Of a stretch of 6,232 bases of DNA, positions 2,257 through 3,570 are shown piece by piece. How positions within the stretch are numbered: position 1 is the stretch's first letter; each line of letters starts with the position of its first letter. The notes beneath the pieces are model-generated. The model searched no databases, was not told the origin of the DNA, and saw only the letters and a program-made list of their open reading frames with translations. The position numbers and the translations under genes are program-made. The stretch lies in the IMG/VR virus record IMGVR_UViG_2526164601_000045. One strand, 5' to 3'. The DNA is from a virus. Lineage: Duplodnaviria; Heunggongvirae; Uroviricota; Caudoviricetes.

Positions 2257-3570
2257 ATGGCAGTAAAGATTTCAGGTGTACTGAAAGACGGCACAGGAAA
2301 ACCGGTAGAGAACTGCACCATTCAACTGAAAGCCAGACGGACCAGCAGCACGGTGGTGGTGAACACGGTGGCCTCTGAAAATCCGGATGAAGCCGGTCGT
2401 TACAGCATGGACGTTGAGTACGGTCAGTACAGCGTCATTCTGTTGGTGGAAGGATTCCCGCCGTCACATGCCGGGACCATCACCGTGTATGAAGATTCTC
2501 AACCGGGGACGCTGAATGATTTTCTCGGTGCCATGTCGGAGGATGACGTCCGGCCGGAGGCACTGCGTCGTTTTGAACTGATGGTGGAAGAAGCGGCGCG
2601 TCACGCTGAGGAGGCGAAGAAGAATGCCGGAGAGGCGGAGACATCAGCGAGGAATGCCGGCATATCAGCCAGTCAGGCAGAAGAGAGCGCTGCACATGCT
2701 GACACTTCAGCAGGGGATGCATCGGAGTCAGCCCGGCAGGCGGCAGAAAGTGCAGCCGCTGCAAAGCAGTAAGAGGAGGCGTCCTCGTCCTCGGCCTCTG
2801 CGGCCGCTCAAAAAGCCAGTGAGTCATCACAAAGTGCAGCAGAAGCTGAATTGTCAAAAAAGACGGCAGAAAGTGCAGCCGGTAATGCAGCCAGGGATGC
2901 AACGACCGCAACAGAAAAAGCCCGGGAGTCAGCAGAAAGCGCACAGTCAGCGGAACAAAGCAGGATAGCGGCGGAAGAAGCCGTAAACAGAATCCCCACC
3001 GTGGTGGGACCTCCCGGGCCAAAGGGGGAACAGGGGCCCGCGGGTCCTCAGGGGCCGAAGGGTGATAAGGGAGAGCGCGGTGACACCGGCCCTGTCGGGG
3101 CAACCGGCGAACGGGGACCGGCAGGTGATGCTGGTCCGGCAGGCCCGCAGGGGCCGAAAGGTGACAGGGGAGAGCGGGGAGAGACCGGTCTGACGGGAAA
3201 TGCAGGTCCACAGGGTCCAAAGGGAGATACCGGTGCGGCAGGCCCGGCAGGCCCACAGGGACCGAAAGGAGAAACAGGTGCGGCTGGCCCGGTAGGGGCA
3301 ACCGGACCTCAGGGACCGAAGGGCGACCCGGGGGAGACACAAATACGGTTCCGTCTGGGGCCGGGAAACATTATTGAGACAAACAGCAATGGCTGGTTCC
3401 CGGATACAGATGGCGCACTCATCACCGGACTGACCTTTCTTGACCCCAAAGATGCCACACAGGTTCAGGGGCTGTTTCGGCATTTGCAGGTCAGGTTTGG
3501 TGACGGGCCGTGGCAGGATGTTAAGGGGCTGGATGAAGTGGGCAGTGATACAGGCAGAACAGGAGAATGA
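2257..3570 (+). pseudogene. stf: Side tail fibre protein, lambda Stf-like N-terminus, Ala/Ser/Glu-rich shaft, collagen-like region and C-terminal domain. One reading frame throughout, interrupted by an in-frame TAA at 2770-2772 (N-terminal product 2257..2772, 171 aa).
   Basis: ATG at 2257 gives MAVKISGVLKDGTGKPV...GRYSMDVEYGQYSVIL...FPPSHAGTITVYEDSQPGTLNDF, matching the lambda Stf N-terminus as I recall it. Frame 1 continues straight through the TAA into [16 protein letters not shown]..., then the Gly-X-Y region and a 78-aa C-terminal domain ending at the TGA at 3568-3570. There is no in-frame ATG after the TAA; the ORF-track start at 2851 is a TTG with no clear ribosome-binding site. Confidence 0.8.
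3007..3336 (+). repeat. Collagen-like triple-helix repeat region of the side tail fibre: 36 consecutive Gly-X-Y triplets with GPQGPKG recurring five times
   Basis: Direct translation: [110 protein letters not shown]. The GC-rich GGN-CCN periodicity is visible in the DNA. Confidence 0.9.

Follow-up and report, generated by a model that had tools for sequence, protein, structure and literature searches.

Where the tail genes of a lambdoid prophage give way to type III effector cargo in Escherichia coli DEC9E, a side tail fibre gene is interrupted by an in-frame ochre codon. The locus raises the question of what this stop represents: a boundary between two genes, a programmed element, an inactivating mutation, or a base that is wrong only in the deposited record. 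The window analysed here (the whole stretch of DNA, 6,232 nt) contains the right end of the prophage followed by its effector cargo, and the prophage is the carrier of tccP2/espV. It corresponds to bases 1-6232 of draft contig AIGO01000068.1 (GCA_000249975.2), whose end lies inside J. The record AIGO00000000 belongs to E. coli DEC9E, an O26:H11, ST29, stx-negative strain from Mexico, 1986, with a draft by Hazen et al. 2012 (as given in PMC5592225, Table 1).

The features of the window are given below by coordinates, strand and description.

1..1502, plus strand: 3' part of J (host-specificity gene), read as two ORFs that overlap (22..780, 732..1502); the window and the contig begin at the same base
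1571..2197, plus strand: lom (Ail/Lom outer-membrane protein), from the ORF map, Pfam and the list of differences
2219..2245, plus strand: lom terminator hairpin, with one C fewer at 2225 and a weaker stem
2257..3570, plus strand: EPclA-type collagen-like side tail fibre gene with a lambda Stf N-terminus, 437 codons, broken at codon 172, from the translation and the intact orthologue
2257..2655, plus strand: PfN / phage_tail_N domain (aa 1-133; PF08400), retained in the 171-aa truncated product
2656..3006, plus strand: Ala/Ser/Glu-rich low-complexity shaft (PCoil; aa ~134-250) with the TAA inside, assigned by composition under the definition of PMC3368898
2770..2772, plus strand: in-frame ochre TAA at codon 172; TCA (Ser) in relatives, C to A at 2771
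3007..3339, plus strand: collagen-like domain (aa 251-361; PF01391), 37 uninterrupted Gly-X-Y triplets
3343..3534, plus strand: PfC / Phage_fiber_C C-terminal trimerisation domain (aa 363-426; PF06820)
3572..3841, plus strand: 89-aa ORF with a second PfC domain (PF06820), from the ORF map and Pfam
3857..3882, plus strand: terminator hairpin 3' of the 89-aa ORF, with one A added at 3867 and T6 shortened to T5 at 3877
3967-4578, minus strand: tccP2, three EspF-type proline-rich repeats, from the ORF map and Pfam
5024-6232, minus strand: 402-aa ORF, EspV in the annotation of some genomes, from the ORF map

The fibre gene lies 3' of J and lom and has a lambda Stf-like N-terminus. This is the order of a lambda-type side tail fibre locus, as judged from the ORF map, Pfam searches on the neighbours and the annotations of ASU11 and VT1-Sakai. 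Regarding a Tfa-type chaperone, the 89-aa ORF matches PF06820 alone and no Tfa family in Pfam. In O26 strain 11368, a fragment annotated as 'tail assembly protein' lies 3' of the 89-aa ORF.

One reading frame and one fibre gene

The ATG at 2257, the TAA at 2770-2772 and the TGA at 3568-3570 share frame 1. Translation of 2257-3570 gives 171 codons, a stop and 266 further codons, which confirms the claim of an initial sequence-only reading that the stop sits inside one continuous frame. The two ORFs listed around it (2215..2772 and 2851..3570) are likewise in the same frame. Together the two halves match an intact CDS of 1314 nt (437 aa; WP_000268950.1) over its full length. A base-by-base comparison with intact relatives identifies C to A at 2771, which converts TCA (Ser172) into TAA, as the sole difference at the stop site. 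The lesion is a point nonsense change and no frameshift, as that reading had stated.

The domain content spans both sides of the stop. PF08400 is found on the 171-aa product of the window. On the intact sister protein, which is 99.8% identical, Pfam reports PF08400 at aa 1-133 (E 6.3e-69), the collagen family PF01391 (E 3.7e-18) and PF06820 at aa 363-426 (E 1.6e-34). The longest Gly-X-Y run of the fibre comprises 37 consecutive triplets (aa 251-361). EPclA proteins such as ECs2717 display the architecture PfN-PCoil-Col-PfC, in which PfC is responsible for trimerisation, and the product is a trimeric, dumbbell-shaped protein (Ghosh et al. 2012, PLoS One 7:e37872, PMC3368898). The window gene contains PfN, PCoil (by composition), a single uninterrupted collagen domain and PfC, and it agrees with the EPclA fibre of EHEC in its 37 Gly-X-Y triplets, its 437 aa and its place after J and lom. 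The feature in which it departs from the family is the single continuous ORF: the deposited frame is cut at codon 172, within PCoil, whereas PMC3368898 mentions no pseudogene or stop codon in the family. Within the EPclA / lambda Stf-N family the gene is unremarkable, and its lesion is of no new kind.

Relatives support the view, already taken from the sequence alone, that the two halves form a single protein. Of 5,426 complete E. coli genomes searched by megablast, 693 cover at least 80% of the 1314-nt stretch; the matches listed all carry one CDS there, labelled 'prophage tail fiber N-terminal domain-containing protein'. The nearest closed genomes in the collection are the sister strains DEC9B, 7_33_46A and F2_407_2_2, all of which encode the intact 437-aa WP_000268950.1 in the context J-lom-fibre-89aa-tccP2. 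In the inducible phage ASU11 and in VT1-Sakai, the fibre is a single 1314-nt CDS, annotated as 'side tail fiber protein Stf' or, in VT1-Sakai, as 'similar to lambda Orf-401'. The sequence-only reading had allowed for the halves being independent genes in related phages, and both of these phages were examined with respect to it. Two 'Stf' features do lie under the match in ASU11; the second is the 89-aa ORF with its start placed further 5', and a single CDS encodes the fibre. Two separate genes were ruled out likewise in VT1-Sakai.

Possible roles for the stop codon

A functional stop would operate through programmed read-through or suppression, or it would separate an N-terminal anchor from an independently initiated collagen/PfC protein. 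Essentially nothing favours such a role, and two features of the sequence are the most that could be cited. The motif GAGGAGG, which resembles a Shine-Dalgarno sequence, directly follows the TAA, and a gene caller places a 189-aa ORF from GTG 3001. The motif encodes Glu-Glu in all copies. Moreover, the first start-like triplet after it in any frame is GTG 2819, and GAGGAGG is unable to serve as a Shine-Dalgarno sequence because this triplet is too distant.

The remaining start sites within the fibre gene are equally unpromising. No in-frame ATG occurs 3' of the TAA, and the only in-frame alternatives are TTG 2851, GTG 3001 and 3004, TTG 3484 and GTG 3538. None of these is preceded by a Shine-Dalgarno-like sequence within 20 nt, TTG 2851 and GTG 3001 included. 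The earlier assertion that the downstream part has no ATG or good ribosome-binding site is borne out. Translational restart was rejected on both counts, as there is no start near GAGGAGG and no Shine-Dalgarno sequence before the distant TTG and GTG codons. The window contains no tRNA genes, hence no suppressor tRNA, and no Rfam families; a suppressor tRNA or RNA element was accordingly discarded for the window.

Conservation provides a further argument. A programmed stop should be conserved, yet the relatives, inducible phages included, all have TCA and a single uninterrupted CDS. Recoding is effectively refuted because the TAA lacks conservation in homologues, and both recoding and an arrangement of two independent genes are essentially excluded. 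We consider it extremely improbable that the stop has a function of either kind.

Rarity of the allele and neighbouring lesions

Comparison with orthologous prophage fibre genes had been proposed as a check on the stop, and it yields a single sense codon, TCA (Ser), throughout the copies compared. None of the 5,426 complete E. coli genomes contains a perfect match to a 61-mer with the TAA at its centre; this 61-mer aligns at 3,547 places with a best score of 60/61, which is reached in 635 genomes. An exact 24-mer with TAA gave no match in species-representative genomes, IMG/VR or JGI metagenome contigs. The control 24-mer with TCA matched 114 IMG/VR viral contigs. With NNN at codon 172, exactly these 114 contigs were recovered again, and no other codon occurs between those flanks. 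The surroundings of codon 172 read KQSEE or KQSED in 114 of 118 fetched copies, the other four having a frameshift or stop before this codon. The exact 171-aa truncated product is recorded from one contig only, AIGO01000068.1.

The position of the gene within a repeat is relevant to the origin of this base. The first ~4 kb of the contig consist of the J-lom-stf tail module, which is present in about eight near-identical copies per genome, and the contig breaks within the module. In DEC9B, megablast locates the fibre gene at 8 places. Import of the A at 2771 from a paralogous fibre gene, either by gene conversion or through a chimeric consensus of paralogous reads, has to be weighed in this setting. 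Near the TAA, positions 2643 and 2646 carry alleles common in paralogous prophage copies, as do 74 and 3651, the latter being the single change in the 89-aa ORF. Either gene conversion or mixed paralogous reads would give this pattern. However, TAA at codon 172 appears in no copy, whether at the 3,547 places in complete genomes, in the 118 fetched copies or in the NNN scan. Paralogue mixing cannot have supplied the A because no paralogue carries TAA, and import of this base is very unlikely.

The TAA is accompanied by other differences. Across bases 1-3990, the DEC9E draft differs from DEC9B by 7 substitutions and 5 single-base indels, as against 3 substitutions (2 of them private to DEC9E) and 0 indels in the adjacent unique segment 4324-12732 of the contig (8,409 nt). 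Binomial probabilities for the clustering in 1-3990 relative to this flank are 2e-4 for all events, 0.0035 for indels and 0.0026 for private or nearly private changes (8 of 10). DEC9B (USA 1979), 7_33_46A (bovine, Nebraska) and LDXB02 (listed as French 2013 strain 36493) agree at every base of the 4,326-nt tail segment. Eight changes in the 4 kb are private, namely the 5 indels and 3 substitutions at 1782, 1920 and 2771.

These changes affect several elements of the tail module. J is frameshifted by the loss of one A from a run of six (A6 to A5 at 702-706), and the A5 61-mer is found in 2 of 610 genomes having the J segment. In lom, two private missense substitutions (L71Q at 1782 and E117G at 1920) have no perfect joint match in complete genomes, and GG to G at 2179 rewrites the C-terminus. 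The lom terminator stem is altered by CC to C at 2225, with an MFE of -16.9 kcal/mol compared with -20.7 in DEC9B. Neither the 2179 nor the 2225 deletion occurs in any genome among 11,777 matching places (best match 98.1%). The terminator after the 89-aa ORF contains an additional A at 3867 and T6 to T5 at 3877, both private to the DEC9E draft, and segment 3836-3906 has no perfect match in complete genomes. The private lesion nearest to the TAA is that at 2225, about 550 nt away. Three loci with rare A5 or 2225 alleles (L112, L118 and L089) were considered as copies of the same prophage and set aside as divergent, uninformative paralogues with J 81-84% identical.

The indels are largely of one type. 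Four of the five remove a single base from a run (A6 to A5, GG to G, CC to C and T6 to T5), and J, lom and the two terminators are affected. The fifth (+A) is not in any run, and two lie in two-base runs. The ratio of indels to substitutions is atypical for natural divergence of near-identical strains and typical of consensus error.

Origin of the stop codon

The sequence-only reading left two alternatives, a genuine inactivating mutation or a base-call error. Both are retained, and the comparison narrows the choice towards error, as the allele is unique and lies amid draft-only lesions. We regard it as probable that the TAA arose when the consensus of the 2012 DEC9E draft received A instead of C at 2771, and that it is absent from the DNA of the bacterium. 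Consensus quality may have been degraded at the repeat-bounded contig end of this early draft, producing one-base defects with the TAA among them. In that case the actual gene would have Ser172 and encode a normal, uninterrupted EPclA-type side tail fibre of 437 aa.

Error is favoured because the allele is known only from the end of one 2012 draft contig, amid draft-only one-base lesions. The allele occurs in one assembly only while close relatives are invariant, and the TAA is co-located with assembly-specific one-base indels, a contig end and a multi-copy gene. The allele is confined to one record, lesions of the types described cluster with it, the stretch is a repeat broken by a contig end, and the sister assemblies agree base for base; we infer from this a sequencing or assembly origin of the lesions rather than a cellular one. 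The paralogue alleles at 74, 2643, 2646 and 3651 are also what would be expected if paralogous reads were mixed.

The same draft offers a precedent. Delannoy et al. 2017 (PMC5592225) suspected that a cas3 frameshift in the DEC9E, DEC9A and DEC10D drafts might stem from sequencing or assembly. The two cases share the assembly and the manner in which a draft consensus error can mimic a pseudogene. They differ in that cas3 is a single-copy chromosomal gene with frameshifts, whereas the fibre lesion is a substitution in a multi-copy prophage gene. It counts against error that the TAA is a substitution, the clearest error signature of the prophage region being indels. The DEC drafts were presumably made by pyrosequencing. 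An explanation of TCA to TAA as a flow-space error (an under-call combined with an over-call) was dropped, as it does not follow cleanly.

A genuine private nonsense mutation in DEC9E, TCA to TAA (Ser172stop), within a decaying lambdoid prophage that carries tccP2/espV is the other reading, and it seems to us possible but rather doubtful. The A at 2771 is present in the deposited sequence, and its nature as a substitution sets it apart from the homopolymer-type indels of the suspected errors. The unique flank has 2 private SNPs in 8.4 kb, a rate that predicts roughly one genuine private SNP per 4 kb. The 3 private substitutions seen there are not anomalous alone, and one of 1782, 1920 and 2771 could well be real. 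Interrupted fibre copies also exist in other assemblies, with seven interrupted among the full-length copies in other contigs. Defective EHEC and EPEC prophages with mutated tail genes are known from finished genomes, as illustrated by VT1-Sakai J (AP000400), annotated as a 'truncated protein by a mutation'. VT1-Sakai resembles the present prophage in its J-lom-stf tail module and as a lambdoid prophage with virulence cargo. Its genome is finished, however, whereas the DEC9E lesions lie at a draft contig end with an implausible density of private indels.

This density is difficult to reconcile with decay. Relaxed selection leaves the mutation rate unchanged, yet the 4 kb hold 8 private changes, including 5 indels of 1 bp, against 2 SNPs and 0 indels in 8.4 kb. 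A consensus error fits the 4-kb patch of lesions better than genuine change along a single terminal branch. Those 4.3 kb show no variation among three sister assemblies across decades and continents, and the GG to G and CC to C losses do not lie at slippage hot spots. The location where an early draft breaks off within a multi-copy repeat, the prior suspicion of artefactual frameshifts in another gene of this draft and the absence of the TAA allele from every other genome searched all count against a genuine mutation as well.

Significance for the prophage and its annotation

Mutations of this kind are familiar in lambdoid phages. In the laboratory strain lambda PaPa, a frameshift divides stf into orf-401 and orf-314, as reportedly described by Hendrix and Duda in 1992. 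Plaques form without side fibres, and stf lesions of this type therefore persist. The fibre gene of the window resembles this case in its N-terminal domain and in a single-base lesion that turns one gene into two ORFs. The lambda fibre, on the other hand, is far longer and non-collagenous and its lesion is a verified frameshift, whereas the window has a putative nonsense substitution.

The biological weight of the stop codon is very small, given that either outcome is mundane and neither raises a new question. In place of one EPclA-type fibre gene, the DEC9E draft as deposited has ORFs of 171 and 189 aa together with a spurious antisense ORF, and J and lom are broken too. If the TAA is an artefact, its value lies in annotation hygiene only, and calls of pseudogenes or of a 'defective prophage' based on this draft would be inflated.

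If the TAA is real, it constitutes a further case of prophage tail-gene decay, analogous to the lesion in lambda PaPa stf. The product would be a 171-aa stub comprising PfN and part of the coiled coil, with no collagen stalk, no PfC trimerisation or tip and no functional side fibre. Together with the frameshifts in J and lom, this would make infectious tails impossible and leave the effector cargo fixed in the chromosome. It is unlikely, though conceivable, that the TAA and its companion lesions are all real. The whole tail module of an effector prophage would then have been knocked out on one short terminal branch with the cargo genes intact, and DEC9E would capture the rapid 'grounding' of a prophage with virulence cargo. 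Its tccP2/espV prophage would in that case lack side fibres and, with the J frameshift, functional tails.

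Lesions in J and lom, altered hairpins and paralogue alleles

The lesions in the DEC9E draft extend to the genes upstream of the interrupted side tail fibre gene. In J, the host-specificity gene, an A-run at 702-706 (within window positions 700-735) holds five adenines in place of six, which shifts the frame and leaves two overlapping ORFs. The 61-mer carrying the five-adenine form occurs in 2 of the 610 complete genomes that have the segment, namely AUSMDU00002545 and ATCC 43889. Further changes lie in lom and in two intrinsic-terminator hairpins.

22..780 and 732..1502: overlapping ORFs from the frameshifted J
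1571-2197: lom, with changes at 1782, 1920 and 2179
2219-2245: intrinsic-terminator hairpin 3' of lom, with a single-base indel private to the draft
3857-3882: intrinsic-terminator hairpin 3' of the 89-aa ORF, with single-base indels private to the draft

Two missense changes in lom are private to DEC9E (L71Q and E117G, at 1782 and 1920). The loss of one G at 2179 converts the C-terminus from ...GVGYKF to ...GVVINSD, so that the aromatic residue with which outer-membrane beta-barrels typically end is lost. The stem of the lom terminator is short of one G-C pair, and its minimum free energy moves from -20.7 to -16.9 kcal/mol. The hairpin at 3857-3882 is altered in shape, with a stability close to that in DEC9B.

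At positions 74, 2643, 2646 and 3651, DEC9E differs from its sister strains by alleles common among paralogous prophage copies (22-33 of the 118 fetched loci). These alleles indicate either gene conversion between prophages or paralogous reads mixed into the draft consensus.

Surroundings and other copies of the fibre gene

The 89-aa ORF (3572-3841) lies directly 3' of the fibre gene, in the position held by tfa in lambda. It has no match to any Tfa family; it matches PF06820 (PfC domain, E 1e-34), a second copy of the domain that ends the fibre itself. Three minus-strand ORFs overlie the fibre region.

2480-3340, minus strand: antisense ORF over the collagen-repeat region, 286 aa
2947-3855, minus strand: antisense ORF over the collagen-repeat region, 302 aa
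2808-2999, minus strand: 63-aa ORF called in the record's annotation where the TAA leaves a gap

The 286- and 302-aa ORFs are most likely a by-product of Gly-X-Y codon periodicity. The fibre gene is also interrupted, at other positions, in seven full-length copies on mostly draft-derived IMG/VR contigs (loci L042, L054, L059, L069, L076, L099 and L100); these may be real pseudogenes or draft errors.

Effector cargo and chromosomal neighbours

The prophage end carries two cargo genes.

3967-4578, minus strand: tccP2, 203 aa, three EspF-type 47-aa proline-rich repeats
5024-6232, minus strand: 402-aa ORF

TccP2 reaches 344 aa and six repeats in the sister strains DEC9B, 7_33_46A, F2_407_2_2 and 36493, against three here; the difference could stem from collapsed repeats in the draft assembly or from genuine variation in repeat number. 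The record's gene caller gave just a 109-aa ORF at this locus. A Pfam search of the 402-aa ORF returned no match. The protein is identical across many O26 and other strains (666 index blocks list it), and complete genomes label it mostly 'hypothetical protein', with some using 'secretion protein EspV' or 'avirulence protein'.

In the DEC9/ST29 lineage, dinI and a fimbrial usher operon adjoin the prophage end, beyond the window in the longer locus L120.

L120 6437-11197: prophage end with dinI and the usher operon, which encodes a fimD-like usher, fimbrial subunits and a FimH-like adhesin

In other strains, a LytTR two-component system, rather than the fimbrial operon, adjoins the same espV-dinI end; the chromosomal neighbours of one cargo end thus differ.
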